Positions 7,950 through 22,428 of a DNA stretch of 37,987 nt are shown here, piece after piece. A program made the position numbers and the translations under genes. Below the pieces are notes generated by a model. It was given only the letters and a program-made list of their open reading frames with translations, made no database searches and had not been told where the DNA came from. The stretch is from a virus (taxonomy: Duplodnaviria; Caudoviricetes). The stretch spans positions 1-37,987 of IMG/VR virus record IMGVR_UViG_3300049016_000030; one strand, written 5' to 3'. Position 1 is the first letter of the stretch. Every line of letters starts with the position of its first letter.

Positions 7950-8567
7950 ATGGAGGTGGTGAATGAAGAACAAGAGCCGAATTCTGAATTGGGGAGTGGC
8001 GATCGAGATCGGAATTATGGTGGTGACCATGTTGATTTACGCGTGGCTGAAGAGCGGCTGGAAGGGGTGACGGAAGCAAAAGCTGAACACTCAGCCAGCC
8101 AGCCGACTGAGTTACAAGCTGGACACTCAGCCTGGAACGCTGAGCACTCAGCGGCGCCGCTGAAACTGGTCCCGGCTGAGCACTCAGTCAGGCCCGCAAG
8201 CGTGGCCCCGATCAAGCGCCCCGTTGAGAAAGTCAGCCGTCCGGTGCCGAGACGCCAAACGGTTGAAAAGAAAGACAATGTTGTTCAACTGAACACTCAG
8301 CGGGGATTGGTTTTTGACAAGTCTCAATGGAAGCGCAGCCGGAAGAAAGAAGGCTATCTGATCCGCCGACTATCCGGCTACAACATAGCCGAGACTGAGT
8401 ATGGGATTTCGTACCTTTGGGTAGTCAGCCGGAAGCCGGATCGCACGACGGCTGATAACTCAGTCCACCCGGCGGCGGGCTATTTCAACTGGGAATCCCT
8501 GGAGAATACAGGATTACTTGTAAAGGAGAGAAAGAGTGACAGACGAGATAAAACAGCCGTTGGATGA
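7950..8567 (+). CDS. Hypothetical protein with low-complexity N-terminus (AEHS repeats)
   Basis: 205-aa ORF; start uncertain. Confidence 0.6.
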   Translation: MEVVNEEQEPNSELGSGDRDRNYGGDHVDLRVAEERLEGVTEAKAEHSASQPTELQAGHSAWNAEHSAAPLKLVPAEHSVRPASVAPIKRPVEKVSRPVPRRQTVEKKDNVVQLNTQRGLVFDKSQWKRSRKKEGYLIRRLSGYNIAETEYGISYLWVVSRKPDRTTADNSVHPAAGYFNWESLENTGLLVKERKSDRRDKTAVG

Positions 8568-8784
8568 CCAGATTATGCAGGCGCTGGCGCAGGCTCATTT
8601 GAGCATGCTGACTCAGGCGGCGAAGGGGAATTTCAGGATGACATCTGAAGACGCTGAGTCACGCCAGGCGTGGCTGATTGGATTCATCCGCACTGGCGCC
8701 GGGATAGTCAGCGAAGAGAATCGGCGCCTTGCGCAACAAGTAAACGACCTGCTGAGCACTCAGTCAGGAATGCTGAGCACTCAG
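8082..8784. repeat. Dispersed palindromic repeats, consensus GCTGAGCACTCAG (8 or more copies)
   Basis: Copies at 8082, 8118, 8139, 8175, 8288, 8451, 8751 and 8772. Confidence 0.85.
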
Positions 8785-8799
8785 CCAAACGCGGCATAA
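8536..8799 (+). CDS. Hypothetical protein
   Basis: AAGGAG RBS with GTG start. Confidence 0.65.
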   Translation: MTDEIKQPLDDQIMQALAQAHLSMLTQAAKGNFRMTSEDAESRQAWLIGFIRTGAGIVSEENRRLAQQVNDLLSTQSGMLSTQPNAA

Positions 8800-8808
8800 G
8801 GAGACCCC

Positions 8809-8949
8809 ATGAAAGAACTAGGAGAACTACGAAAGAACATCAACGAAGGACAGCAATTGGCGCAGAGCGTAGGACGCTGGCAGGTTGCGTTCATTGTGGC
8901 CGTCGTTGTGGCGGCGCTCGCGACCATTGTTTTCTTGTCACAAATATAA
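8809..8949 (+). CDS. 46-aa single-TM protein
   Basis: Not in the track; AAGGAG RBS; MKELGELRKNINEGQQLAQSVGRWQVAFIVAVVVAALATIVFLSQI. Confidence 0.6.
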   Translation: MKELGELRKNINEGQQLAQSVGRWQVAFIVAVVVAALATIVFLSQI

Positions 8950-8969
8950 ATCCAACAAGGAGACCCCAT

Positions 8970-9125
8970 ATGAACAACGGACCAGAGATACCACCAGCAG
9001 CAAAAGTCTTACTACTAATCCTACTCGCGTTCGGCCTGTGGCTCGTTTCTCTCGCGTACAAACACGCGGGAGAGCCGAGCGTTCCGACTGCTGAGACGCT
9101 GGGGCGGAAGAGGCAGGTGAAATGA
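8970..9125 (+). CDS. 51-aa single-TM protein
   Basis: AAGGAG RBS; VLLLILLAFGLWLVSLAY; ATGA overlap with the methyltransferase. Confidence 0.6.
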   Translation: MNNGPEIPPAAKVLLLILLAFGLWLVSLAYKHAGEPSVPTAETLGRKRQVK

Positions 9126-10237
9126 TCATAAACGCATCTGCAGACAATTTACCATTCGCCGATACCTGCTTTGATGCGGTCGTCACTGATCCGCCTTACG
9201 GCCTGGCGTTTATGGGCAAGCGATGGGATTACGACCTGCCCAGCGTCGAACTATGGCGGGAAGTTTACCGCGTGATGAAGCCAGGCGCGCACCTCTTAGC
9301 GTTTGGTGGCTCGCGCACCTATCACCGAGCAGTCTGCCGAATCGAAGACGCAGGCTTTGAGGTCAGGGATTGTGTGATGTGGCTGTACGCCAGCGGATTC
9401 CCAAAATCTCACAACCTGGAAGACGAATGGGAAGGCTGGGGGTCAGCCCTGAAGCCAGCGCATGAGCCAATTGTCCTGGCGCGTAAGCCTCTTGATGGGA
9501 CCATTGCTGAAAACGTGGCGAAGTGGGGATGCGGCGCCCTGAACATTGACCGATGCCGAATTGAGGGCAAGGTAATCAATCCACTTGTGAGGAATGCCCC
9601 TGGTTTTCAAAGCGATGGGCTGATTCAAGGCCCTACTGGGAAAGGCATGGTAAGCGAAGGCCGATGGCCTGCAAATGTCATCCACGATGGCAGTGATGAA
9701 GTTCTGGCCTTCTTCCCTGACGCCCCTGGTCAGATCGCGAAGGTTGACGGGACAGAGCCTAGCGCGAAAACTAAAGATATTTACGGCAAGTTCAGTGGCT
9801 GCCGCGCGCCAGCAATCCCGCGCGTCGAGACAGATCGCTCAGCGGCGCGCTTCTTCTACGCCGCGAAGGCCAGCAAGAGCGAGCGCGAAGCAGGGCTTGA
9901 CCGCCTGCCGGAGCGCACGAAGGTTTTCAACGGCCAGAGCGGCGAATCCAGCCAAGATATGAAGCCGGTCGAGGAGCGCTTTACGACGAAGGCGCGCAAC
10001 TTCCATCCAACAGTCAAGCCAATCGCCTTGATGCGCTACCTGTGCAGGCTGATCACGCCGCCCAATGGGCTGATCCTTGATCCCTTTTTTGGCTCAGGCT
10101 CAACAGGCGTGGCCGCCCAGCGTGAAAACTTCAGATACGTTGGCGTCGACCTAGTTGGCGAATATACCCAGATCGCCAGACTCAGAAACGAGCACGAGGC
10201 GAACAGGTTTCCGCTTTTTGCTCAGATCGGCTCTTAA
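9122..10237 (+). CDS. DNA methyltransferase, N6-adenine/N4-cytosine, beta class
   Basis: N-terminal TDPPYG; HPTVKP; C-terminal LDPFFGSGSTG SAM-binding motif. Confidence 0.93.
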   Translation: MIINASADNLPFADTCFDAVVTDPPYGLAFMGKRWDYDLPSVELWREVYRVMKPGAHLLAFGGSRTYHRAVCRIEDAGFEVRDCVMWLYASGFPKSHNLEDEWEGWGSALKPAHEPIVLARKPLDGTIAENVAKWGCGALNIDRCRIEGKVINPLVRNAPGFQSDGLIQGPTGKGMVSEGRWPANVIHDGSDEVLAFFPDAPGQIAKVDGTEPSAKTKDIYGKFSGCRAPAIPRVETDRSAARFFYAAKASKSEREAGLDRLPERTKVFNGQSGESSQDMKPVEERFTTKARNFHPTVKPIALMRYLCRLITPPNGLILDPFFGSGSTGVAAQRENFRYVGVDLVGEYTQIARLRNEHEANRFPLFAQIGS

Positions 10238-10266
10238 CGAATCGTCTCTTCCTTAAAGGATGCCCC

Positions 10267-10653
10267 ATGCGCCTACTAATCTTCTTACTCCTCTTCCTCA
10301 CTGTCCCCGCCTTCGCCCAGGACGATCAGGAACCGCCACCGCGGCGCGCAAGCGATTTAACGCCCGAAGAGCGACAACGACTACGCCAAGGGACGTACGA
10401 AATGCGCGCCGTGGGAAGAAGCAATAAACCGCGCTGCGGTCCTGATTGCGTCGAGAAGAGAAGAAGGGAAAGTGTCCAAGCCGGGCAGGTAAAGACAGCT
10501 TCTACTACTCCCACTTGGCGAGACGATTGGAGCTTGTGGTTTGTAATCGGCGGCGTGGCGTTCCTTGTGGCGATGGGCGTGTTTTTGGCGGGCAGCATTC
10601 TTGAACAGCGGCGCGACGAGAAGAGGCAGCGAGAGGAACTGGGTATTAAATGA
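10267..10653 (+). CDS. Signal peptide plus C-terminal TM protein
   Basis: MRLLIFLLLFLTVPAFA; LWFVIGGVAFLVAMGVFLAG. Confidence 0.7.
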   Translation: MRLLIFLLLFLTVPAFAQDDQEPPPRRASDLTPEERQRLRQGTYEMRAVGRSNKPRCGPDCVEKRRRESVQAGQVKTASTTPTWRDDWSLWFVIGGVAFLVAMGVFLAGSILEQRRDEKRQREELGIK

Positions 10654-10826
10654 ACGACTCCGCAACCTTCCACATCATCATCTCGCCCTCCAATCTCTAC
10701 CTCTGGTGGACGCTGGCGCCGACGGAGGATGAAGCTTGGGAAAGATTCAAAATAGGCTACGCCGACGTCCGCCGCGCGAGGCGGAGGGGGTGTAGATGTG
10801 TGAGGGTGAAATTAACGTTGGTATAG
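10650..10826 (+). CDS. 58-aa hypothetical protein
   Basis: Not in the track; ATGA overlap; fills the gap to the next gene. Confidence 0.5.
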   Translation: MNDSATFHIIISPSNLYLWWTLAPTEDEAWERFKIGYADVRRARRRGCRCVRVKLTLV

Positions 10827-10841
10827 AAAGGAAAAGGCGAA

Positions 10842-11216
10842 ATGACGACAGACGAAATCAACAAACTGGAAGCCGGTCCTAAACTCGACGCCTTTATCGC
10901 CGAGCGCCTAATGGGCTGGGTCGATTTGGAATGGCGCGAGGGCGGCAACGATGGCCGCACGCTCACGCCAACAGGCTATTACGGCAAAGGGCCAGGCCAT
11001 GCTTGTTTTCTGACCGATCACTATTCGACCGATATGCGCGCCGCGTGGATGGCGGCTGAGAAGGTCGGCATGTTCAAGTTCTGCGATATCACGCAAGGCG
11101 ATGCCGGATGGTGGATTGATAACGTAACGCAGGATTGGCGCGTCGAGGCCGAGACCGCGCCGCTCGCGATTTGTAAAGCCGCGCTGATTATGGCGGAAGA
11201 AAGCGAGGGAAAATGA
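10842..11216 (+). CDS. Phage ABA-sandwich / BC1872-like protein
   Basis: LDAFIAERLMGW...YSTDMRAAW...AETAPLAICKAAL. Confidence 0.75.
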   Translation: MTTDEINKLEAGPKLDAFIAERLMGWVDLEWREGGNDGRTLTPTGYYGKGPGHACFLTDHYSTDMRAAWMAAEKVGMFKFCDITQGDAGWWIDNVTQDWRVEAETAPLAICKAALIMAEESEGK

Positions 11217-12235
11217 GCAAAGAATTCAAACTTGAATTTAAACGAACGCTGAGCGGCCATCTCCGCGCCGATTTCACCGATGATTACGGGGAGCCTTGCA
11301 TTCTGAAGGGCTCCGAGGCGCAACAGAAGGTATGGCTGAAATCTCCGAGCAGCGATCGTCCATGTCTCAACCGCGAAATGGCCAAAGAAATCGGATTCGC
11401 GCTGATCCGCTTCGCAAAGAACGGCAGCCTCGCGGAACCGACGCCCGAACAACAACTGGCGCATTTTCAAGCCGTGATGGACGAGCACGACGAATATTAT
11501 CAACTGCAATGCGCGGTGGTAGAGGACGCGCGGGAATTTATAGGACTAACCAGCGCGCTCTTGCAGGCTTATCAGGATGACTATCGAGCCGATGGCGACT
11601 ATTGCCACGACCTGCAAGGCCAAATCGCTGCAGCGGAACAGTCACTGGGCGATACCGTCGAAGAATTGGAAACATGGATGAAAGAACACGGATGGGAGGT
11701 AATGGAAAAAGCCGAGCTTGCAGCCGGCCGCATTGGGGAACTGCTGAACTCCTACAAAGACGCCGCCAATACGATTGGCGGTCGCGCGAAGAGACTTCAG
11801 TCCGAGCGCGATGAGCTTCAGGCCCAACTAGCCGTCAAAGAATCCACAATCGCCGACTTGAAAGACCTCGCCTACGAGCGCGCGCCGAGGATTGCGGCGG
11901 AGGAGGCGGGGAAGGTGAGGGAGGAATTGGAGGCGCAGTTAAGAGAGGCGAATGCGAAACTTGAGCGCACGTGGTCACATAGAGAGATCGCCAGACTCAA
12001 GGGCGAACTTGAAATAGCGTGGGGCCAAGCAGAAGCGGGGGACAGGCTGCGCGAGAAAGCCGAAGCGCGCGAATCTCGTCTGCGCGCCGCTCTGGAAGCA
12101 ATACTACGAGAGCCCTATGGCTGTCCATTCTGCAACTCGGGCAAGCTTCGAAATCCGTTGAAAACCCATACCGACGACTGCGGATATGCACTCGCGCCAG
12201 CCGCCCTCGCAGAAAAGGAGGCGCCTACACAATGA
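11213..12235 (+). CDS. Coiled-coil phage protein with C-terminal CxxC...HxxxC motif
   Basis: ATGA overlaps at both ends; heptad-rich central region. Confidence 0.75.
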   Translation: MSKEFKLEFKRTLSGHLRADFTDDYGEPCILKGSEAQQKVWLKSPSSDRPCLNREMAKEIGFALIRFAKNGSLAEPTPEQQLAHFQAVMDEHDEYYQLQCAVVEDAREFIGLTSALLQAYQDDYRADGDYCHDLQGQIAAAEQSLGDTVEELETWMKEHGWEVMEKAELAAGRIGELLNSYKDAANTIGGRAKRLQSERDELQAQLAVKESTIADLKDLAYERAPRIAAEEAGKVREELEAQLREANAKLERTWSHREIARLKGELEIAWGQAEAGDRLREKAEARESRLRAALEAILREPYGCPFCNSGKLRNPLKTHTDDCGYALAPAALAEKEAPTQ

Positions 12236-12855
12236 GCATTGCCAAACTACGCGAGAACAACTACGAATACGCAACCGGGCTTACGCGCGCGGATTTGGAA
12301 GCGGCGATTCTGGAATACGACGGACTGCAAAAACTCGGCGTCCACTTGAGTCATTGCAACTTTGGCGAGAACGCCGGAGCCTGCAAGTATGGTGAGGACG
12401 ATTGCCCGGCGCTGACGGACAGTTGGGAATGGCTCGGATTGGCGCTTCAGCGAGTCAGGGACTGCGAGGACTGCGGCGCCACAATGAATCATAGAGGACT
12501 CGGCCAGTTCGAGTGCTGGAAATGCACGGAGGAAGAGACAAGAGCCGAGAATGTTCGGCTGAAAGCGGCGCTGGGGCGAATCAGGAACGAGCAGTATACC
12601 TGCCTGGATAAGGACTGTACCGCAAGCGTGATTGCGGGCCGCGCGCTTGATACGCCCGACGCGCCAGCCGAAGAGGAAGCCCTAGAACTCGACACGACAT
12701 CTAAACAACTACGCGGTGACGGCGTGGAGTTTTGCGACCGGGACCCAAAATGTTATCGGGCAATCAGCCACGGCGGCGAATGCTGGCGGCTGAATGTGGA
12801 GAACGCGCCAGCCGCACGCGCGGAGACGGGGCGGGAGAAAAGGGGCGCGGAGTAA
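12232..12855 (+). CDS. Cys-rich hypothetical protein
   Basis: AAGGAGG RBS, ATG 12232; several Cys/His clusters. Confidence 0.7.
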   Translation: MSIAKLRENNYEYATGLTRADLEAAILEYDGLQKLGVHLSHCNFGENAGACKYGEDDCPALTDSWEWLGLALQRVRDCEDCGATMNHRGLGQFECWKCTEEETRAENVRLKAALGRIRNEQYTCLDKDCTASVIAGRALDTPDAPAEEEALELDTTSKQLRGDGVEFCDRDPKCYRAISHGGECWRLNVENAPAARAETGREKRGAE

Positions 12856-13019
12856 TGAGATGGCCGCGAGGCAAATACAACGGACGCCGGATTATCGGGC
12901 TATCGGTTGAGTGTAAATGCTATCTGATGCACTGGTATTGGCTGCCACACAAAACAAAGCTTATGAGCGGGTTTCACTGGCTCTGCTTTAGCGTGTGGTT
13001 CATGTGGGTTTACGAATAA
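12855..13019 (+). CDS. 54-aa Trp-rich hypothetical protein
   Basis: TAATG coupling; MRWPRGKYNGRRIIG... Confidence 0.55.
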   Translation: MRWPRGKYNGRRIIGLSVECKCYLMHWYWLPHKTKLMSGFHWLCFSVWFMWVYE

Positions 13020-13060
13020 CCGCCTGCGCGTACCCACAGCGTGGCGGCGAGGAAGGGAAT

Positions 13061-13270
13061 ATGAATCTAAGGAACAATCCGAATATCGACTGGGATAAAC
13101 GCCGAGCGCTGGAGACGCAATATGACGCCGCGGACGACGCCGGTCATATCGGGCACTGCGATTCTTGCCAATCAAAGGATACCGTCCTGTGTTTGAACTG
13201 CGGGTTTTGTTTTAGGTATTGCCATCCGTTCGATGATTGCGAGACAGCGCCAGTGTTTTACGAGGACTGA
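13061..13270 (+). CDS. Small Zn-finger protein
   Basis: CDSC, CLNC, CFRYC; purine-rich RBS. Confidence 0.6.
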   Translation: MNLRNNPNIDWDKRRALETQYDAADDAGHIGHCDSCQSKDTVLCLNCGFCFRYCHPFDDCETAPVFYED

Positions 13271-13714
13271 ATGACGCTACACCTACAGCCAATTGAATGG
13301 GACGAGGCTTGCGAGTTTATTCGCAGGCATCACCGACACCATCCGCCGCCACAGGGCTGGAAGTTTGGCGTTGCGGTGAATGACGGCGAAAACGTCGTCG
13401 GCGTCGCCATTATTGGCCGTCCGGTAAGCCGTCACTTTGATAATGGTTGGACGTTGGAGGTTACAAGGCTGTGTGTACTGGAAGGCTATCCGAACGCGGC
13501 GAGCAAACTGTGGGCAGCGGCGTGGCGCGCAGCGAAGGCGCTGGGATACAGAAGAATGGTTAGTTACACATTGCCTGACGAAAGCGGGACATCTCTGCGA
13601 GCTGCGGGGTGGAAAGAAGTGGGATTGGCTGGCGGGGGAAGTTGGAATAAGCCTAGTCGGCCACGAGTGGATAAAGCACCGACTGTGCAAAAGAAACTAT
13701 GGGAGGCTGCGTAA
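13271..13714 (+). CDS. XF1762/Mom-like GNAT-fold putative DNA base-modification enzyme
   Basis: EACEFIRRHHRHH...GVAIIGRPVSR...LEVTRLC...YTLPDESGTSLRAAGW. Confidence 0.8.
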   Translation: MTLHLQPIEWDEACEFIRRHHRHHPPPQGWKFGVAVNDGENVVGVAIIGRPVSRHFDNGWTLEVTRLCVLEGYPNAASKLWAAAWRAAKALGYRRMVSYTLPDESGTSLRAAGWKEVGLAGGGSWNKPSRPRVDKAPTVQKKLWEAA

Positions 13715-13776
13715 TGACTTCACGCAAACGAGACTGGGCGGCGATGAAGCGCAACGCTGAAGATTGAAGATTTTTC

Positions 13777-13805
13777 TTGTACCCGGCTGTCTTATATCTT
13801 AGAAT
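13777..13805 (+). promoter_or_regulatory. Sigma70-type promoter
   Basis: TTGTAC-17 nt-TAGAAT, 10 nt before the HTH start codon. Confidence 0.6.
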
Positions 13806-13815
13806 AGTCTGCGTT

Positions 13816-13983
13816 ATGAGACTTGGAAATATACTGCGGGGCTGGCGACAGTCCCAAAAACTTGACATTCGATCCGTGGCCGCCGACATCGGAATCAGCC
13901 ACGGCACTCTGTCCCGAATTGAACGTGGCGAGAACGTTGACGGGGCAACTTTAATCAAACTTCTATTGTGGCTTTTATCTTGA
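13816..13983 (+). CDS. Small XRE HTH regulator
   Basis: LRGWRQSQKLDIRSVAADIGISHGTLSRIERG. Confidence 0.85.
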   Translation: MRLGNILRGWRQSQKLDIRSVAADIGISHGTLSRIERGENVDGATLIKLLLWLLS

Positions 13984-13994
13984 ATGGAGGCGCC

Positions 13995-14201
13995 ATGAAC
14001 GCTCAGGAAGCATACGAACACTACGACAAAACCGGCGAGGACGTTTTCCTCTTTACCAAGAACGATGTAACCCTGAAGGTTGTTTTCGTTACCGACGCGG
14101 GCGACGTGTACGTGCCGAGGCTTGGAAAAGGGTTTTTGGTGCAGAACTTCTATGACGGATGGAAAGCCAACCCGATAGGAAAATCAGACCCGCTCACATA
14201 A
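13995..14201 (+). CDS. Hypothetical protein
   Basis: GGAGG RBS before ATG 13995. Confidence 0.6.
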   Translation: MNAQEAYEHYDKTGEDVFLFTKNDVTLKVVFVTDAGDVYVPRLGKGFLVQNFYDGWKANPIGKSDPLT

Positions 14202-14218
14202 CCTATATTATGCACGAC
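14191..14218. other. dif/res-like recombination site
   Basis: CGCTCACATAA-CCTATA-TTATGCACGAC: CATAA-N6-TTATG core, as in E. coli dif. Confidence 0.6.
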
Positions 14219-15055
14219 ACAGAACTAAACAACTTAGACTCTCTTATGGCTGGTTGGCTCGATAGCGGACGCCGTAGCAGCGCTCACACACAAGAGGCGT
14301 ACAAGCGGGACGTGCGCGCTTTTGTGGCCTATTCCCGCAAGCCAATCAAAGAGACTGAACCGGGCGATGTGATCGGATATCAGGCGTACTTGCGCCAACA
14401 GGTCGGAACCCCGGCAACTGAATACCGCAAGCTCTCCGCACTGCGAAGCTTCTTCAAATACCTGAAGCTAACCAAGGAAATCAAAGAAGACCTGGCCGTG
14501 ATCATCAAGACGCCGAAGGTTCAGAGCAATTTCAAAGCGAAGGCGCTGAGCGTGGCCGAGATTCAGGCCATCATTGACGCCGCCGCGCCCAGCCCGCTCG
14601 ATTCCCTGCTGCTGCGAATGCTGTATGTGACAGGCGGGCGGATTTCTGAAGTCCTGGCTCTCACGTGGGCACACCTGAGAGCGGCGGACACTGGGGGCGG
14701 ATACGTCCACATTCTTGGCAAGGGCAAGAAAGAGCGAGAGGTCTATATCGGGCCGGAACTGTGGGCGGACCTGGACCGGCATATCACCGACGACGGCGCT
14801 GACGGGCACCTGTTTCAACTGGATCGCCACGAAGCAGCGGCAATGCTGAAGAAGGCCGCGAAGGCTGCAAAGATCACCAAAGCTGTCACGCCGCACGTCT
14901 TCCGGCATTCCCTGGCGACAAATCTTCTGGCGAGCGGAAAGGCCACGCTGATGCAGGTCCGCGACCAGCTTGGACATTCCGACATTTCAACCACGTCGCT
15001 TTATCTTCACGCTGAGGATCGCGCAGCAATGATTCGGGATATGCCGATTAAATGA
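14210..15055 (+). CDS. XerC/XerD-like tyrosine recombinase (resolvase type, no arm domain)
   Basis: SAHTQEAY, TGGRISE, GKGKKER, TPHVFRH, LGHSDISTTSLY. Confidence 0.93.
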   Translation: MHDTELNNLDSLMAGWLDSGRRSSAHTQEAYKRDVRAFVAYSRKPIKETEPGDVIGYQAYLRQQVGTPATEYRKLSALRSFFKYLKLTKEIKEDLAVIIKTPKVQSNFKAKALSVAEIQAIIDAAAPSPLDSLLLRMLYVTGGRISEVLALTWAHLRAADTGGGYVHILGKGKKEREVYIGPELWADLDRHITDDGADGHLFQLDRHEAAAMLKKAAKAAKITKAVTPHVFRHSLATNLLASGKATLMQVRDQLGHSDISTTSLYLHAEDRAAMIRDMPIK

Positions 15056-15602: not shown

Positions 15603-15726
15603 ACTGAAGAAAAACCTATGGAAACGCCGCCTAACCCGCCCCCGCGCGGTGGAGAAAGAACGTGGGTACGGAATCGGGGTTTCTTACCCATATGCACAAT
15701 CTCATGGGTACATTGAAGGGAGCATT

Positions 15727-16706: not shown

Positions 16707-16787
16707 CCCCGCGCGGCGAACGGCGCCGGCTGGAAGCGGGGATGCGGCGTAGAGCTTGCGCGAACGTGGGAACGATACGAGGTATTC

Positions 16788-17426
16788 ATGACTGCAACTC
16801 AAACAATTTACGCTGCCGCTGGCTCCGGCGACACAGCCGGAACCTGCCGCCTGTGCGGCGCTGAGGGGACCGGCCAACTCTTCGATAAATGGGTGAAAGA
16901 CGCCTTCACGAATTTCGACCTACTGCAAGGTGGCGAAATCGCCTGTCACGCCTGCCTGTTCTGCGCCGAGGAGAAAAGCGTCTTGATTCAAACCAAGCTC
17001 GGCAAGGATAAACCGCAAAAGACGCGCAACTATTCGCACTTCGTTTTGCGCGGCGAATGGTTTCCGCTCTCGAAAGGCGACAAGCGAAAGATGCGCGAAT
17101 TGCTCAGCCAATCGCCAGAGGTTGCGGTGATCGCAGAATCCGGACAGAAGCATCTTTGCTTTCGCGCTCGCCCTGGCTGGTGGCAATTCGAGGAACAGGC
17201 GATGCTTTCCTGCTGGGATAAAGTCAATTCCCTGCTGCCGGTTATCGAAGAACTCATGGCGGACTTCAGTAAATCTGAAATCGAATCGGATCACTACCTG
17301 CAATATCGAATTATCAAATTCGGCGTCGAGCGCTGGCGGAAACTATCAGAGTCCCTGCGACCAGTCCGCCTCGCGCCGCATTTTCAACTCGCGCTATTCC
17401 TGGCGCAGAAAGCCGAGGACGAATGA
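16788..17426 (+). CDS. csf1: Type IV CRISPR-Cas large subunit Csf1 (Cas8-like)
   Basis: N-terminal CRLC...FTNFD...CHAC Zn site, SGQKHL motif; first gene of the csf operon. Confidence 0.8.
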   Translation: MTATQTIYAAAGSGDTAGTCRLCGAEGTGQLFDKWVKDAFTNFDLLQGGEIACHACLFCAEEKSVLIQTKLGKDKPQKTRNYSHFVLRGEWFPLSKGDKRKMRELLSQSPEVAVIAESGQKHLCFRARPGWWQFEEQAMLSCWDKVNSLLPVIEELMADFSKSEIESDHYLQYRIIKFGVERWRKLSESLRPVRLAPHFQLALFLAQKAEDE

Positions 17427-17794
17427 CACACGAAGAAATAGCCGAAAACCTATTAACCCCGCTCTGGCAAGGGATTGACGCCGGATACAAGGCCAAATAT
17501 TCGCTCACGATCTGGCAGCAATTCGAAGACAATATCCGCTCGGCGGCCTATACGAGCAGCGCGGCGGACTTTCTCTCAAGGATCAAGACGCGGCTGGGAA
17601 TTGTGATTCGCGGTGACGACCTGGCCAAAATCACGAGCATTATTACCGCTGGCGAGGATCGCGCATTACTCAAAATGCTTCGCGAGCATTCTTCGCTTTT
17701 AGTCGTACTCGTTCGCGCGGCCAATGAAGAGCGGCGCGCGGAATGGCACAAACAAATGGACGCAACGAAGACCGCGAAGCAGAACGCGGCGTAA
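17423..17794 (+). CDS. cas11: Type IV-B small subunit Cas11 (Csf4)
   Basis: 123-aa alpha-helical ORF between csf1 and csf2 (IWQQFEDNIRSAAYT); ATGA overlap. Confidence 0.7.
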   Translation: MTHEEIAENLLTPLWQGIDAGYKAKYSLTIWQQFEDNIRSAAYTSSAADFLSRIKTRLGIVIRGDDLAKITSIITAGEDRALLKMLREHSSLLVVLVRAANEERRAEWHKQMDATKTAKQNAA

Positions 17795-17802
17795 GGAGAC
17801 TT

Positions 17803-18777
17803 GTGGAAACAATCGTATTTGAAGGCGAACTGCTCGCGCTGACCTCAATTGCGCACAATGGCGGTCAATCATTCGGGATCGAATCAAAACTTAGACGCGA
17901 ACGATTCGTCCAGCCGGACGGAACCGTCGAGGAAGTGCCCGTAATTTCAGGCAATGGCCTACGTGGAATGCTGCGCGACCGTGGGATGTGGCATATGTGC
18001 CGGCAGTTAGGCTATGGCGTGGACGAAGAGAACGGCAAGGTATTGGGCCTGAGTCTTTCCGCCTTTTACTTTCTCTTTTCTGGCGGCGCGCTCACTGAAG
18101 CCGGCAGTGGCGGGATTGACGTTGAGTATGCGCGGAAACTGCGCGAGACGATTCCGCTGATTTCACTCTTCGGCGGCGCCGTCGGGGCGCAGATACTGCC
18201 GGGAAAGTTGAAGGTTGGCAAGGCGATTCCGATTTGCGCCGAGACGATTCATTTGCTGCCGAAGACCTACCAGGAACGCGCCACGCCTTCAATTTGGGAC
18301 TTCCTGCAAACCGAAATGTATACGCGCAAGGACGATGAACGAAACGAGAAACTGCGCACGGTGATCGAAGGAAAGGCGCTGAAGCAGATTGCAGGCGCCC
18401 CGGCAGCGCTATTCGAGGCGGCGCCGGTCGAGGTCGCCGAGGCCGTCGAGAAGCGCAAGCCGCAGCAAATGATGTATCTCACCGAGACCTTCGCAGCCGG
18501 AACACTCTTCTACTGGAAATTGATTCTCGAAGACCTGACGGACGTGGAATACGACGCCTTTATGACCGTGCTCGTTGAGTTCTCGAAAATGCCCTACGTC
18601 GGCGGCAAATCGGCCGTAGGACTCGGCGAAGTGGCAATCAAGCTCGGTCAGGGTATCCAGATCGATTCGCGGCTGAAGGCTGAAGCAACGGAACTCGCGC
18701 GGCCGGCTGGGATGGCATATCACGAGCATTTAAAAAGCCGTGGCGGCGATATTCGGAAGATTCTGGAAACGGTATGA
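17803..18777 (+). CDS. csf2: Type IV Cas7-family RAMP Csf2
   Basis: LTSIAHNG, VPVISGNGLRGMLRD, LFSGG, PLISLFGG, YTRKDD, Gly-rich loop GGKSAVGLG; AAGGAG RBS with GTG 17803. Confidence 0.9.
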   Translation: METIVFEGELLALTSIAHNGGQSFGIESKLRRERFVQPDGTVEEVPVISGNGLRGMLRDRGMWHMCRQLGYGVDEENGKVLGLSLSAFYFLFSGGALTEAGSGGIDVEYARKLRETIPLISLFGGAVGAQILPGKLKVGKAIPICAETIHLLPKTYQERATPSIWDFLQTEMYTRKDDERNEKLRTVIEGKALKQIAGAPAALFEAAPVEVAEAVEKRKPQQMMYLTETFAAGTLFYWKLILEDLTDVEYDAFMTVLVEFSKMPYVGGKSAVGLGEVAIKLGQGIQIDSRLKAEATELARPAGMAYHEHLKSRGGDIRKILETV

Positions 18778-19586
18778 CCGATACGATACCGCGCGCAAAA
18801 CTGGCGCTATGGGCAGGTTGGCGATACTACCGCAGGCTCGCGCTGGAATATCCCGAAGATTTTCAGCAGGCGGCGGCGCTGCTCGCGCTGTCGTCGGTTG
18901 AAGTATCGGACGATAAAGAAGCGTTCCGGCTCATCACTCGCGGCTTTGCGCGAGTCTGCCGCTCTTACGGGTATCGCTATCATCCACAGGCCGGATGGAT
19001 CAGGGGCGAAAGCTACGCAAGCGTAAGGCCCGCATATCTATGCAAGTGCGGGCGAAAGTCGTTCAGCGCCAAACACTGCGGAGCTTGTCGAAGTCGTGAG
19101 TATCGCGAACGAGGGCCGAAAGCGCGGAAAGAACGCGCGCCGAAATCGCCGCCGCTGTGGAACTGCGCCAACTGTGGCAAGTCGTTTGAGAAAGCAAAAA
19201 GGCGAATGCGATCAGATCAGAATATTTATTTCTGCTCGACGGCTTGCTACCACGACGCGCGCTCCAGGGAGGTCTGGCGGTTGACCGCGCAGGCGAATAT
19301 CACGAGGCACGCGGTCGAGCGGTTTTGTGAGCGGGTAATTGCGTGGCGTCCTGAGCGGGCGCTTGCCGCGATTCGCAGAGGATTATCGAAACCGATCGCG
19401 ATGATTCGCAAACGAAAAGGCTGGGAAGCGACGTGCCGGATAGGCGCGCTTGAATTTCGCGTGCATCTCAAACGAAACGCTGAGAATTCGCTTGACGCCG
19501 TGACGGTGCTCGAAAGCCGCGCGGATAACGATCAAATGCGAGCGGAAAGGAGGTCGCGCCGAGATGAATCAAGCAGAAAGTCATAG
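18774..19586 (+). CDS. ORF X: helical N-domain, two Zn fingers and a RelE/BECR-like (DUF4258-like) putative RNase
   Basis: CKC...CGAC; CANC...FCSTAC; ITRHAVERFCER...DAVTVL; overlaps both csf2 and cysH. Confidence 0.6.
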   Translation: MTDTIPRAKLALWAGWRYYRRLALEYPEDFQQAAALLALSSVEVSDDKEAFRLITRGFARVCRSYGYRYHPQAGWIRGESYASVRPAYLCKCGRKSFSAKHCGACRSREYRERGPKARKERAPKSPPLWNCANCGKSFEKAKRRMRSDQNIYFCSTACYHDARSREVWRLTAQANITRHAVERFCERVIAWRPERALAAIRRGLSKPIAMIRKRKGWEATCRIGALEFRVHLKRNAENSLDAVTVLESRADNDQMRAERRSRRDESSRKS

Positions 19587-20322
19587 AGAATCCTGTTTAT
19601 TACGCGCCAGACTGGCGGGCTTTGCACGATTGCTAGGGCGAACTGAGGCGATAATTCGCGAGGCGTTTAGCCAATCCGCAAGACCCTATGTCGCGCTGAG
19701 TGGCGGCAAGGACTCGACCGTTCTACTCTCGCTCGTCCGCGAGGAAAGGCCGGATACCGCGGCGATCTTCAGCGACGATGAATGGAATTTCCCCGAGACG
19801 ATGGCGTACCTGGATACGGTTCCGAACCTTACCCGCGCCGCTTCGCGCGTTCGCCATGCGTCCTGGTTTACGAGTTGGGAGAGTGGGCCGGTAGGCCTAC
19901 CGGCCGATACAATCTGGCTCGACGCAAAACAGGGTGACGGGATTCCATCGTTCGCGCGAGGTCGCGGCTTCGATTTGGCGTTTATCGGGCTGCGAAAAGA
20001 AGAGGCCACATACAGGCGTCTGCACCTATGCGGGCGCGGGACGATATTCTATTGCCACACTCACCAGGCAATCGAGTGCAATCCGCTGGCAGATTGGAAG
20101 GTCGAGGACATATGGGCATATCTGCTAAGTAGAGAAATCCGATACAACGCCGCTTACGATCGGATGACTGGTCTAAACGTTCCTCTTCCTGAACAACGCG
20201 TCGGGCCGTTCGCCGTCGAAAAGGCCGTTGGCCAGGGCTCGCTCGCGATCATCAAGCGCGGCTGGCCTGAATTGTGGAATCAATTTACTGAACGATACCC
20301 AGAGGCTTCGAACTATGCGTAA
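19564..20322 (+). CDS. cysH: CysH-like PAPS-reductase-family protein of type IV-B systems
   Basis: PP-loop SGGKDS, GLRKEE...R, NPLADW...DIWAY...YNAAYD. Confidence 0.88.
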   Translation: MNQAESHRESCLLRARLAGFARLLGRTEAIIREAFSQSARPYVALSGGKDSTVLLSLVREERPDTAAIFSDDEWNFPETMAYLDTVPNLTRAASRVRHASWFTSWESGPVGLPADTIWLDAKQGDGIPSFARGRGFDLAFIGLRKEEATYRRLHLCGRGTIFYCHTHQAIECNPLADWKVEDIWAYLLSREIRYNAAYDRMTGLNVPLPEQRVGPFAVEKAVGQGSLAIIKRGWPELWNQFTERYPEASNYA

Positions 20323-20995
20323 AAACGATTTCCTGCGAATCACCGCGAATTTCCAAACGCCTGTAATCTGCGACGACCGGCTGCCGCTCGACGGGATTAT
20401 TTTCTATCAGGTTATGCGCGAACGGTATGGTTTCGAGTCTTCCACGCAGGCCGGCGTTGCGGCGCTGGCTGACGGCGTGGACAAGCGCGATTGGATGCCG
20501 TTTGACGTGCATTACAAAAACGTCAACGGCGAAAACTTCTGGTATTACGCCTGCTCTTTCGCGCGCTGGGTCGGGACGGTCGCCGAGGGCCGGGACCATT
20601 GGGTGAAGCGCTTCGACCAGCAATTCAGCGATGTGATCGACTTTCAAGGCAAGCGTGGAAAGATCGTCACCGCGAACGGTAAATACAAGGGCTATCGAAT
20701 GCCTGTCTTTACGCGTCACGCGCTCGCGGCTCGCTGGTACTGCGTCGGCGACCGGCGCGAGTTGGAGCGGCTATTGCCCCACGTCCAGAGCGTCGGGAAA
20801 AAGACTTCCCAGGGTTACGGGGTGGTTCGCGACTGGCAGATCGAGCGCTGGCATGCGGACTGGAGCACGCGCGGTCCGCAAGGACTGATGCGCGCACTGC
20901 CGGCTGATACCGGCGTCAAGGTTGGCTTTCGGCCCAGCTACTGGTTTGCGCCGAATCAGGCGATTTGCGAGATGCCGGCAGATTATTCCGACTGA
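20315..20995 (+). CDS. csf3: Type IV Cas5-family RAMP Csf3
   Basis: LRITA...LPLDGII, YKGYRMP, WYCVGD...LL...VGKKTSQGYGVV; start is ATG 20315. Confidence 0.87.
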   Translation: MRKNDFLRITANFQTPVICDDRLPLDGIIFYQVMRERYGFESSTQAGVAALADGVDKRDWMPFDVHYKNVNGENFWYYACSFARWVGTVAEGRDHWVKRFDQQFSDVIDFQGKRGKIVTANGKYKGYRMPVFTRHALAARWYCVGDRRELERLLPHVQSVGKKTSQGYGVVRDWQIERWHADWSTRGPQGLMRALPADTGVKVGFRPSYWFAPNQAICEMPADYSD

Positions 20996-21007
20996 CGAGC
21001 TTGCGCG

Positions 21008-21052
21008 AAAAAAAAACAGCCTGCCGAGGGGATCAATCCGGCAGGCTTTTGA
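21008..21052. terminator. Bidirectional intrinsic terminator
   Basis: A-run, stem AGCCTGCCG/CGGCAGGCT, T-run; lies between convergent operons. Confidence 0.8.
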
Positions 21053-21854: not shown

Positions 21855-21880
21855 CGCGCTTCCCTGTCCTTTCGTGATTT

Positions 21881-22058
21881 GATCCTTGAAAACTCAATGA
21901 AGGGCTGGACTTTTGCGGCTTTCGGAGTCTGTTTCAAGGTTTGTGATTGTGCGCGGCATTTTCGATTCCCCGAAGGTTATCAGCCGGAAGCCTTTCACCT
22001 CTCTTCGCGCGTCCCTGCGGCTCTCACTCACCAGCCATTCATTGAATTTTCAAGGATC
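21881..22058 (-). ncRNA. Candidate structured leader/ncRNA closed by a 28-bp stem
   Basis: Arms 21881-21908 and 22031-22058 are 26/28 complementary; internal C(UUCG)G hairpin; begins about 20 nt after the predicted transcription start. Confidence 0.55.
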
Positions 22059-22084
22059 GTTTCGTTTCCCTCACCAGTAAGGAT

Positions 22085-22113
22085 ATTCTACGCGAACGCG
22101 GATAATATTGCAA
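22085..22113 (-). promoter_or_regulatory. Leftward sigma70-type promoter
   Basis: TTGCAA-17 nt-TAGAAT. Confidence 0.7.
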
Positions 22114-22137
22114 TAGGCAGACGCAAATAATCTGTGC

Positions 22138-22166
22138 TTGCGCGTAAAAATAATTCAGCGTATATT
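22138..22166 (+). promoter_or_regulatory. Promoter of the HTH gene
   Basis: TTGCGC-17 nt-TATATT. Confidence 0.6.
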
Positions 22167-22182
22167 AGGAGTGGAGGTAGTA

Positions 22183-22395
22183 ATGGAAAAACTTACAGTC
22201 GCGGAAGCGGCGAAACTTAAAGACTGTTCGAAAAGCACGATCTTGCAGTTAATACGAAAGAATCTCTTGCCAGCCGAACGCAAGGGGCCGATATTCTTGA
22301 TTCCCCGATACGCCGTCGAAGCATATCAACTGCCGGGGCCTGGGCGTCCGCGCGGTAGAAAAAACTTACCGAAAAAAGAAGATTTATCTTCGTAG
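22183..22395 (+). CDS. HTH_17 (Xis/MerR-like) regulator with AT-hook-like tail
   Basis: LTVAEAAKLKDCSKSTILQLIRKNLLPAERKG; PGRPRGRK; GGAGG RBS. Confidence 0.85.
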   Translation: MEKLTVAEAAKLKDCSKSTILQLIRKNLLPAERKGPIFLIPRYAVEAYQLPGPGRPRGRKNLPKKEDLSS

Positions 22396-22399
22396 CCTA

Positions 22400-22428
22400 T
22401 TGCAATAATGTACGCACTCGCGTATATT
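22400..22428 (+). promoter_or_regulatory. Rightward sigma70-type promoter
   Basis: TTGCAA-17 nt-TATATT; inverted copy of the promoter at 22085-22113. Confidence 0.7.

Follow-up and report, generated by a model that had tools for sequence, protein, structure and literature searches.

A soil-phage type IV-B CRISPR-Cas operon, with no array found in its record, carries a gene with a predicted RNase-fold domain that recurs in and beside CRISPR-Cas-type gene clusters

The question of what an additional gene contributes to a type IV-B CRISPR-Cas operon is raised by a locus in a virus record of 37,987 nt (G000; this whole stretch of DNA is referred to as the window). According to the available parts of PMC8175902, PMC7937560 and PMC11656645, subtype IV-B lacks both a demonstrated function and a nuclease, and its native RNA is not known. 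In the window, six open reading frames (ORFs) on the + strand follow each other in the order csf1-cas11-csf2-X-cysH-csf3, joined by overlaps or a short gap, so that the six tightly coupled genes described in the initial annotation are all present. The operon and its borders comprise the following features:

16752..16764, + strand: left copy of a 13-nt direct repeat, just 5' of csf1, with an exact copy at 20997-21009
16788..17426, + strand: csf1, Cas8-like large subunit, 212 aa (PADLOC Csf1_0_IV, typeIV_Cas8, E 5e-16)
17423..17794, + strand: cas11, small subunit, 123 aa (PADLOC Cas11_1_IV, typeIV_Cas11, E 2e-26)
17803..18777, + strand: csf2, Cas7-like backbone, 324 aa (PADLOC Csf2_0_IV, typeIV_Cas7, E 3e-79)
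18774..19586, + strand: X, 270 aa, with a sigma-region-2-like part, zinc fingers and a BECR RNase-like domain (AlphaFold2 model, fold searches, orthologue in the IV-B operon L148)
19564..20322, + strand: cysH-like PP-loop enzyme, 252 aa (Pfam PAPS_reduct, E 5e-19)
20315..20995, + strand: csf3, Cas5-like, 226 aa, ATG start at 20315 (PADLOC Csf3_0_IV, typeIV_Cas5, E 2e-42)
20997..21009, + strand: right copy of the 13-nt direct repeat, just past the csf3 stop, with an exact copy at 16752-16764
21018..21047, + strand: terminator-like hairpin 3' of csf3, flanked by an A run and a U run (-18.2 kcal/mol)

The csf2 gene starts with GTG at 17803, with AGGAG just 5' of it, and csf1 shares 60-62% identity with its counterparts in two related operons, L001 and L148. 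NCBIfam Csf models match as well, yet under their curated cut-offs, which also applies to TIGR03115 against csf2 (E 5e-20). The cysH-like protein features an SGGKDS motif, while its last cysteine is residue 172 of 252, and the C-terminal catalytic cysteine is thus absent. The hairpin agrees with the terminator that had been claimed for the end of the operon; it is missing from the list of a consensus terminator scan, faces a convergent gene and is likely bidirectional. As to the direct repeat, none of 1473 random pairs of 150-nt stretches from the window had 13 nt in common.

The surrounding genes encode tape measure, tail and neck proteins, two tyrosine integrases, a repressor, Mom and a DNA methyltransferase, and thereby place the operon on a mobile element. 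As the 50 ORFs of the window include no recognisable terminase or capsid gene, the record is probably an incomplete phage genome. Within this probably incomplete record of 37,987 nt, neither cas1, cas2, cas3, cas6 nor DinG was found among the 50 ORFs by a Pfam scan, nor were RecD and Cas10, and a six-frame search of the window with three cas6 queries was likewise negative. Moreover, the window yielded no CRISPR-spaced repeats, no Rfam matches and no tRNA. The profile matches of Csf1, Csf2, Csf3 and Cas11 in PADLOC and of PAPS_reduct, together with these absences, are in line with the initial annotation of a type IV-B CRISPR-Cas operon on a temperate phage, array-less within this record. Contigs from other soil sequencing runs span the csf2-X joint (run X2) and the X-cysH joint (X2, X3 and X4), one diverged variant included, while no joint bypassing X was found across the contigs of 8 sequencing runs; none of the runs listed was an RNA sequencing run holding the locus.

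A guide RNA was sought by several routes. The window holds no array-like repeat pair, and only isolated pairs occur, in 8 of 90 loci; no non-coding sequence is common to the window, L001 and L148, and intergenic folds are no better than those of shuffled sequences. Hence, searches by Rfam, repeat pairs and shared non-coding sequence produced no conserved guide-RNA candidate.

The notion that a sixth gene is special in itself was rejected upon comparison with related operons, as 32 of 76 carry an internal extra gene. X itself is present in just one of the 76 other operons of its csf2 clade and absent from the remaining 75, and is therefore not needed for the complex. The nearest csf2 to that of the window, at 76% identity, belongs to a Pyrinomonadaceae prophage, and a Pyrinomonadaceae prophage operon, L148, is also the one that holds the X orthologue. 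A survey for homologues of X between csf2 and cysH had been proposed as a check; the orthologue does reside inside a type IV-B operon, but in the slot csf1|cas11. In the sister operon L001, whose record is 82% complete, X is lacking and cysH is replaced (27-30% identity, versus 46% between the two X-bearing operons). Furthermore, cas6 occurs in 3 of 77 operons, with Cas6 taking the csf2|cysH slot in L048 and L105.

No family match was obtained for X except a weak zinc finger (Pfam zf-FCS, E 0.03), and its architecture was approached by structure prediction. A single-sequence fold (pLDDT 40.9) was discarded, while an AlphaFold2 model with a 26-row alignment reached a mean pLDDT of 89.6 and comprises three parts:

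18777..18977, + strand: X residues 2-68, sigma-region-2-like helical bundle (fold search against several sigma domain-2 structures, Z 5.2-5.9; near-invariant D29 and Q32)
19041..19250, + strand: X residues 90-159, Cys-rich zinc-binding region of the treble-clef type, CxxC...FCxxxC (invariant Cys in alignments; weak zf-FCS match)
19287..19532, + strand: X residues 172-253, predicted BECR fold of colicin-like topology, with conserved H179, R187 and T244 (model secondary structure, fold searches, conservation)

The N-terminal domain aligns best with the SigE N-domain (8b3z; Z 5.9, rmsd 2.8, 64 aligned residues), a score that helical bundles reach by chance. Its D-x-x-Q (D29, Q32) presumably corresponds to the core-binding motif of sigma region 2.2. 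On the other hand, a Pfam scan of 18 members, up to an E of 1, gave no sigma family, the model contains no second helical domain of the region-4 helix-turn-helix (HTH) kind, and when the N-domain profile was compared with those of three sigma-like passengers, the probability was 2% and thus not significant. The N-domain of the L148 orthologue gave a complex score of 0.53 with the host beta-prime clamp (120-322), versus 0.00 for the best control, a value that may derive from the training of the predictor because similar complexes have been solved. This lends weak support to docking of the X N-domain on the beta-prime clamp of RNA polymerase.

In the C-terminal domain (pLDDT 92-98), helix 178-187, which carries H179, precedes helix 193-205 and four strands, so that the predicted model displays the pre-alpha plus alpha-beta1-beta2-beta3-beta4 topology. 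This topology, with a His in pre-alpha, is that of the colicin-like BECR RNases, most of which are tRNases (10.64898/2026.08.28.747851). Fold searches retrieved RelE, ParE, BrnT, colicin D and CdiA-CT at Z 5.5-7.7, with 6l7q as best match (Z 7.7, rmsd 3.3, 73 aligned), RelE/ParE at 6.2 and colicin D at 5.5 (rmsd 3.0, 72 aligned), and thus, like all scores of X, below the Z of 8 under which likeness can reflect shared arrangement alone. With an E cut-off of 0.001, Foldseek had no match in either PDB or BFVD, searching PDB sequences with the domain profile brought up no meaningful match, and no Pfam or PADLOC profile matched the C-terminal domain of X. Among 12 domain sequences, DUF4258, RelE and ParE were without a Pfam match at E up to 1, with one weak Gp49 match (E 0.03), and a DUF4258 row in the ESM Atlas structure search fell below the bar for naming. 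H179 is kept in 35 and T244 in 34 of 37 long-form rows, and the His is kept in all 120 standalone homologues among those listed. However, two full-length orthologues (P0010, P0011) have lost the His, and several relatives (P0012-P0014) lack the entire BECR domain. From model and conservation, the C-terminal domain is predicted to cut RNA.

Full-length X is known from two contexts, the window and L148. Pattern scans of viral, metagenome and genome contigs disclosed no further one, a result that reflects low sensitivity since L148 does hold an orthologue, and annotated phages contained no match for X or for the related domain of L162. The BECR domain also occurs as a standalone gene; its profile gathers no fewer than 331 clusters at 90% identity, and the domain has no constant neighbour gene. 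Inside or beside IV-B cores it is found 3' of cas11 (L162), between cas11 and csf2 (L214), between csf1 and cas11 (L230), 3' of csf3 (L216, L224 and L227) and, as an 85-aa gene on a Rhodovastum atsumiense plasmid (L208), the one cultured source, between csf3 and cysH. A further cysH-like locus, L183, with cas6e and a domain::HTH fusion devoid of the His, was a marginal match (E 6e-6) and does not enter the counts. Scanning viral contigs for the motif gave 19 clusters, of which the 6 top-scoring ones, all of the long form, adjoin cysH- or IbrB-like genes, 4 of them with an IV-B core, whereas none of the 13 short-form clusters has IV-B or cysH neighbours (p 0.005 for IV-B). The two long-form clusters L213 and L215 have IbrB-like neighbours, and csf2 is absent from their partial records.

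In the domain tree, the long form constitutes one side of a branch supported at 100/98; a first tree, built without the viral long forms, had placed two short-form rows on long branches inside the X group, and the larger tree splits them off. On the csf2 tree, presence of the domain requires 4 changes, 3 of which are forced. The domain is also found in host genomes: all 23 Blastocatellia copies lie directly before cas4 (cas4-cas1), directly flanked by cas7 (17 of 23) or by another cas gene, and the 20 loci with both sides visible show a cas gene on one side, cas4 on the other and no antitoxin gene. All host copies form one clade (100/99) and count as one event accordingly. The window's own domain scores 19.9 bits against a host-only profile, on par with short-form relatives, and its tie to the host copies runs via the orthologues (35-46 bits) and the tree. 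Taken together, close relatives of the BECR domain of X are nearly confined to CRISPR-Cas-type gene clusters or their immediate neighbourhood.

The tentatively preferred explanation, held at somewhat less than an even chance, is that X is an optional RNA-cutting accessory, probably tethered to RNA polymerase, which provides the Csf/CysH machine with RNA or trims RNA for it. The sigma-2-like domain would dock X on the host RNA polymerase, and the colicin-D-type BECR domain would cut or trim short RNAs, its substrate possibly being tRNA or a nascent transcript. The product may be handed to the Csf complex, a role played elsewhere by Cas6, and the Csf filament would bind the trimmed RNAs, which the CysH-like enzyme might then modify through adenylylation chemistry, as proposed for this enzyme in PMC8175902. 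Recurrence of the domain at several IV-B slots and before host cas4, and the conserved His, Arg and Thr, support the accessory role; against it stand the occurrence of X in 1 of 76 operons, the His loss in P0010 and P0011, the Z below 8 and the openness of the slots to varied genes. Host type I-C, I-D and III systems have their own crRNA maturases, and a Cas6-like role therefore fits the host loci poorly. Because a predicted RNA-cutting domain coincides with close relatives almost confined to CRISPR-Cas-type clusters, X is a likely candidate for the RNA-processing enzyme that IV-B systems lack. A more far-reaching version appears improbable: the domain would be an uncatalogued CRISPR-associated RNase family and the missing processing enzyme of many IV-B systems, which would cleave tRNA or nascent transcripts to yield 55-60-nt RNAs for Csf loading and CysH-dependent modification; a Blastocatellia lineage would have captured it from phages into its cas4-cas1-cas2 module, and fusion to the sigma-2 mimic would put guide production on the transcribing RNA polymerase.

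The designation of X as an extra effector in the initial annotation is favoured by the predicted RNase fold and its recurrence with IV-B and host cas genes; the sigma-2-like domain points to transcription. The strongest competitor, though rather unlikely, regards X as a transcription regulator of the phage that merely resides in the operon, whose zinc fingers and sigma-2-like domain contact RNA polymerase and DNA, whose BECR domain merely binds RNA or is vestigial, and whose link to IV-B arises from a shared phage cargo region with insertion-prone slots. Among the named passengers, HTH or sigma-region-4 proteins are the most frequent (10 of the 41 that were scanned), the N-domain family of X also exists without the BECR domain, two orthologues have lost the His, the beta-prime score is mildly favourable, several domain genes and IV-B operons sit before terminase genes, and the 13-nt repeat brackets the operon as in a mobile cassette. 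Yet several short-form relatives also precede terminase genes while being devoid of IV-B or cysH neighbours in all 13 clusters, no Pfam sigma match was found, and the standalone domain, which has no regulator part, lies within IV-B core strings of distant lineages, with the His retained in all 7 rows from viruses and plasmids.

Less probable still is a conditional toxin, a tRNase or mRNase restrained by the Csf/CysH module and freed upon superinfection or anti-CRISPR attack for abortive infection or host shut-off, with host-locus copies stalling growth during spacer acquisition. The nearest solved folds are toxins, tRNA is the usual target of colicin-like BECR proteins in conflict systems (10.64898/2026.08.28.747851), and the CARF-RelE protein Cami1 is a CRISPR effector with the same fold; however, an antitoxin gene is absent beside the domain in every context read, host copies being enclosed by cas7 or another cas gene and cas4, X lacks a sensor domain such as CARF, and it is coupled to its neighbours without a promoter of its own. 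An anti-CRISPR role, in which the Csf filament would sequester host crRNA for degradation by X, draws on a published sponge idea (PMC8175902, PMC7038947) and on the presence of cas1 in 148 of 301, about half, of the likely host class, but is very improbable, as the IV-B complex displayed no preference for co-expressed crRNA in the available part of PMC7937560, PMC7038947 itself judged the reading unlikely, and members of this domain family form part of the hosts' own cas operons. The two functions suggested initially, capture of crRNA and an RNA-sensing toxin, found no support in any result of the analysis.

A small gene with a predicted His-dependent RNase fold, which recurs within IV-B operons from distant phages as well as from a plasmid and also lies before host cas4-cas1, represents a concrete component to add to Csf reconstitutions. 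The Rhodovastum atsumiense plasmid provides one cultured source, so that the role of the domain is directly testable. Even if a role in IV-B fails, the family constitutes an unannotated gene in CRISPR operons of a major soil lineage.

Among known systems, subtype IV-B, including the Csf complex of Mycobacterium sp. JS623 (PDB 7JHY), shares with the window the four Csf/Cas11 genes and a PP-loop CysH-like protein without the C-terminal cysteine, as far as described in the available part of PMC7937560, as well as residence on a mobile element and, within the probably incomplete record, absence of array, Cas6, helicase and adaptation genes. According to the same part of that source, Csf2/Cas11 ribonucleoprotein assembly was demonstrated for JS623 only, with a complex of four Csf proteins binding mixed RNA. 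The window differs in the order csf2-X-cysH-csf3, in having an internal gene for a three-domain protein, part of which has a predicted RNase fold, and in its soil-phage carrier, its csf2 being 29% identical to that of JS623. The 'Fuxiviridae' virus locus (PMC10848311) likewise combines IV-B effector genes and a cysH-like gene on a virus without an adaptation module, but has a mini-array on an archaeal virus, whereas the phage window carries X and no array was found in it.

As for X, its predicted pre-alpha plus alpha-beta1-4 topology, pre-alpha His and last-strand Thr are shared with colicin D, CdiA-CT tRNases, DUF4258/Ntox49 and RelE/ParE, but X has no DUF4258 or RelE/ParE Pfam match and, flanked by csf2 and cysH, no adjacent immunity or antitoxin gene. 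The type III effector Cami1 (PDB 8phb) also places a BECR/RelE-fold RNase domain in a CRISPR setting, yet X lacks the CARF sensor, IV-B makes no known second messenger and the likeness reaches a Z of only 4.7. The N-domain resembles sigma-70 region 2 (SigE N-domain, sigma-A domain 2) in its predicted helical bundle and near-invariant D-x-x-Q, whereas it has no Pfam sigma match and is followed by zinc fingers and the BECR domain in place of a region-4 HTH. Unlike colicin-like BECR RNases, the domain of X occurs in cas operons and is here fused to a sigma-2-like domain and zinc fingers. Phage-borne IV-B has already been published and a sixth gene is ordinary; the interest of this locus is X itself.

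The value of this operon lies in a CRISPR-linked RNase-like family, represented by a domain of X, the product of its sixth gene, and not in its six-gene make-up. The interpretation of the initial annotation is partly supported: type IV-B membership stands, whereas the six genes as a noteworthy trait do not. In the window sequence all six genes are present, coupled and on the plus strand in the proposed order csf1-cas11-csf2-X-cysH-csf3, with PADLOC naming the four Csf/Cas11 genes and Pfam the cysH-like gene:

16788-20995, plus strand: the six-gene operon
plus strand: csf1 (PADLOC E 5e-16)
plus strand: cas11 (PADLOC E 2e-26)
from 17803 (likeliest start, GTG), plus strand: csf2 (PADLOC E 3e-79)
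18774-19586, plus strand: X, 270 aa
plus strand: cysH-like gene (Pfam 5e-19), with an SGGKDS PP-loop and no Cys beyond residue 172
from 20315 (likeliest start, ATG), plus strand: csf3 (PADLOC E 2e-42)
21018-21047: hairpin, 3' close of the operon

With csf1, cas11, csf2 and csf3 named by PADLOC, the operon belongs to subtype IV-B, as initially called, and the PP-loop without late Cys corresponds to the IV-B CysH pattern described in PMC8175902. The proposed terminator end is borne out by the hairpin beyond csf3. An array, cas1/2, cas3, cas6 and DinG, likewise noted as missing, as well as Rfam RNAs and tRNAs, were not detected within the 37,987-nt window; since the genome behind it is represented by the window only and the whole phage is probably longer than the record, these absences apply to that stretch. 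The operon is carried by a temperate tailed phage; the scan of 50 ORFs in the window recognised neither a head nor a terminase gene. Near-identical DNA occurs in soil metagenome runs (10 rows sharing at least half of words, one possibly the source), and the X-cysH junction is bridged by contigs out of three studies. The closest csf2 with a named host among the matches listed (76% identity) resides on a Pyrinomonadaceae contig, which suggests Blastocatellia as the host. Relative to the window, csf1 has a 12-nt in-frame insertion at 16824 in contigs from three other runs.

An exact 13-nt direct repeat surrounds the whole operon (16752-16764 and 20997-21009), while such sharing occurred in 0 of 1473 random pairs. 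Flanking repeats of 16-20 nt are present in 3 of 67 other operons (L096, L035 and L028), and together these repeats suggest cassette-style gain. The small-gene run 5' of csf1 contains a 10-nt GC-rich motif at 15640, 15942 and 16707, twice immediately past a stop codon, and one contig of the soil run X2 has joints at motif sites, with short sides of 27-28 letters; these sites are possible cassette boundaries. Upstream, 9122-15055 is a nucleic-acid-modification neighbourhood in the same direction, encoding a DNA methyltransferase, a Mom-like acetyltransferase and a second tyrosine recombinase. Iteron-like direct repeats at 8069-8192 and 8748-8785, within and after an unnamed gene (7950-8567), mark a possible replication origin. 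Long inverted repeats, one of 28 and one of 30 nt (21881-22424), enclose an excisionase-like HTH gene (22138-22395), and joints in other runs skip 21865-22392 and 21876-22082.

Searches with csf2, taking the best 80 of 171 metagenome matches, yielded at least 116 loci bearing the complete set of four core genes, which collapse at 90% csf2 identity into at least 77 operons, the window included. Internal gaps of 170 nt or more, the criterion applied, occur in 34 operons among the matches listed. Without the window and the artefact L109, 32 of the 76 operons among these matches contain an extra internal gene, so that a sixth gene was rejected as an unusual feature. The 41 inserted ORFs scanned comprise HTH or sigma-region-4 proteins (10), Cas6 (3), SpoU methylases (3), ParB-like proteins (2) and single cases including a kinase, a Vsr nuclease, a phosphatase and a methyltransferase; the remainder had no match. 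The Cas6 genes lie within phage IV-B operons (L014, 7678-8355; L048, 6975-7622; L105, 2172-2663), the latter two in the same slot as X in the window; their rare occurrence in IV-B operons is already published (PMC7038947). Tandem csf3-like pairs were seen in L216 (3553-4979), L124 and L022. IbrA/IbrB-like pairs of a long PAPS reductase and a ParB-like protein (L213, L215, L226, L230, L042, L067 and L102) recur adjoining both IV-B operons and the BECR domain.

Homologue searches place X in a small family, and its confident model (26-row alignment, pLDDT 89.6) is tripartite. The N-terminal part, residues 2-68, is similar to sigma region 2 in a fold search (Z 5.2-5.9) and contains the near-invariant D29 and Q32, which we take to be akin to the core-binding motif of region 2.2. 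Residues 90-159 are Cys-rich, while the modelled residues 172-253 match RelE, ParE, BrnT, colicin D and CdiA-CT folds (Z 5.5-6.4), with the hypothetical protein 6l7q on top (Z 7.7); the Z values are middling, yet the list is filled by this single fold. Predicted topology and a first-helix His agree with the colicin-like BECR group, in which most of the characterised members cleave tRNA (10.64898/2026.08.28.747851, section 10). This residue, H179, is retained in 35 of 37 rows of the long form, one of two groups of domain relatives, and the first-helix His in 120/120 standalone homologues among the matches listed. Among X homologues, P0010 and P0011 carry Glu at this position and P0012-P0014 stop short of the domain. 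Pfam and PADLOC profiles gave no match for the domain, and its homologues among the matches listed are all unnamed or hypothetical.

A full-length X orthologue (E 9e-31) lies within the operon of a Pyrinomonadaceae prophage (L148), the only X-bearing one of the 76 other operons among the matches listed. The idea of X homologues between csf2 and cysH thus holds for the presence of a homologue in a IV-B operon but not for the slot, which is between csf1 and cas11 instead. The sister operon L001, whose four core genes are all nearer to those of L148, is devoid of X (record 82% complete), and at 8975-9730 its cysH is swapped for a distant homologue (27-30% identity versus 46% between the two X-bearing operons); both differences are one event. 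The sole plasmid match to a host copy, i.e. a standalone domain gene of Blastocatellia cas operons, is an 85-aa gene of Rhodovastum atsumiense between csf3 and cysH of a complete IV-B operon. In L162 the domain gene follows cas11, and the operon (8412-9565) ends past it at an insertion-sequence-like stretch on the opposite strand near the contig end; csf2 was not found within this 48%-complete record, nor within the partial records of L213 and L215.

Scanning IMG/VR with a motif derived from X and four relatives, two being short forms, gave 27 loci in 19 clusters, which were ordered by their score against a profile built solely from host copies, with neighbours read within the fetched 5 kb. 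The top six clusters have cysH- or IbrB-like neighbours in 6/6 and IV-B core genes in 4/6 cases, compared with 0/13 for either among the lower 13 (IV-B link versus rank, Mann-Whitney p 0.005; narrow score gap at the boundary, 22.6 versus 21.0 bits). The window's own domain is divergent from this profile (19.9 bits), its place in the family being given by orthologues and the tree. L163, L164 and 11 other viral clusters represent the short-form family, which shares the first-helix motif and has neither a name nor a CRISPR link; in both cases read, the gene lies directly 5' of terminase genes. L209 (G620:C411, 2-2036) contains a cysH-like gene, next a gene in which a BECR-like domain without the His is fused to HTH repeats, and then cas6e.

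The X profile also matches standalone 105-125-aa proteins in Blastocatellia genomes without csf2, where they are located in host cas operons. A domain profile partly made from 11 such proteins matches 25 of 301 Blastocatellia genomes, namely the X gene of L148 plus 24 standalone copies, of which 23 were counted after exclusion of one from an unpublished genome. All 23 lie immediately 5' of cas4, with cas1 next, and their 5' neighbour is I-C cas7 (17), csx1 (1), cas3 (1), I-D cas5 (1) or a contig end (3). Since cas1 is present in 148/301 genomes (three unpublished ones counted), the majority of host systems lack the domain gene; a phylum-wide sample contains it in 3/401. The 33-row tree separates long forms (X, viral/plasmid IV-B/Ibr copies and host copies) from short forms by a 100/98 branch. 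Because the host copies constitute one clade (100/99), evidence from the host setting must be discounted; rooted on short forms, the tree would derive the host gene from mobile copies. In the csf2 tree (FastTree), domain presence takes four changes, three forced by supported branches, which give no prevalence estimate since domain-bearing rows were selected for the domain.

Host type I-C, I-D and III systems possess their own crRNA maturases, so that a Cas6-like role suits them poorly. The published IV-B complex comprises four Csf proteins and bound mixed 55-60-nt RNA without processing subunits (PMC7937560). Tentatively, X may cut or trim RNA handled by the Csf filament and the PP-loop CysH-like enzyme, activity, substrate and hand-over all being inferred, while the sigma-2-like fusion would position it on RNA polymerase. 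An RNA-cutting role is the simplest, as an RNase-fold gene recurs within IV-B operons and here occupies the L048/L105 Cas6 slot. For the polymerase contact, the N-domain of the L148 orthologue and its host's beta-prime clamp scored 0.53, against 0.00 for the best of three controls, with a contact agreement of 92% or more between runs and a partner pLDDT of at least 75. The score mark is reached by 116/157 solved pairs and 2/215 mismatches, of which only 18 solved pairs and both mismatches score no higher than 0.60, and similar complexes are already solved; the model faintly suggests binding. Somewhat less likely is that X acts as a regulator carried along by an operon prone to insertions. Less probable still is a conditional toxin. 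A crRNA sponge equipped with a nuclease is improbable for this module.

Type IV-B systems, their CysH link and their carriage by prophages and viruses are published (PMC7038947, 10.1101/270033, PMC10848311, PMC11656645, PMC12669027), and DUF4258 toxins are called undescribed in PMC11980606. Within the mostly open-access literature searched, no report was found that describes either a BECR-like accessory within IV-B loci or the domain family 5' of cas4. The BECR classification preprint (10.64898/2026.08.28.747851) does not use the term 'CRISPR' in its main text; the CRISPRicity profile list or the 2025 classification tables may already contain the family. As modelled, X falls by profile in neither named family and resembles a fusion of a BECR RNase with a sigma-2 mimic.
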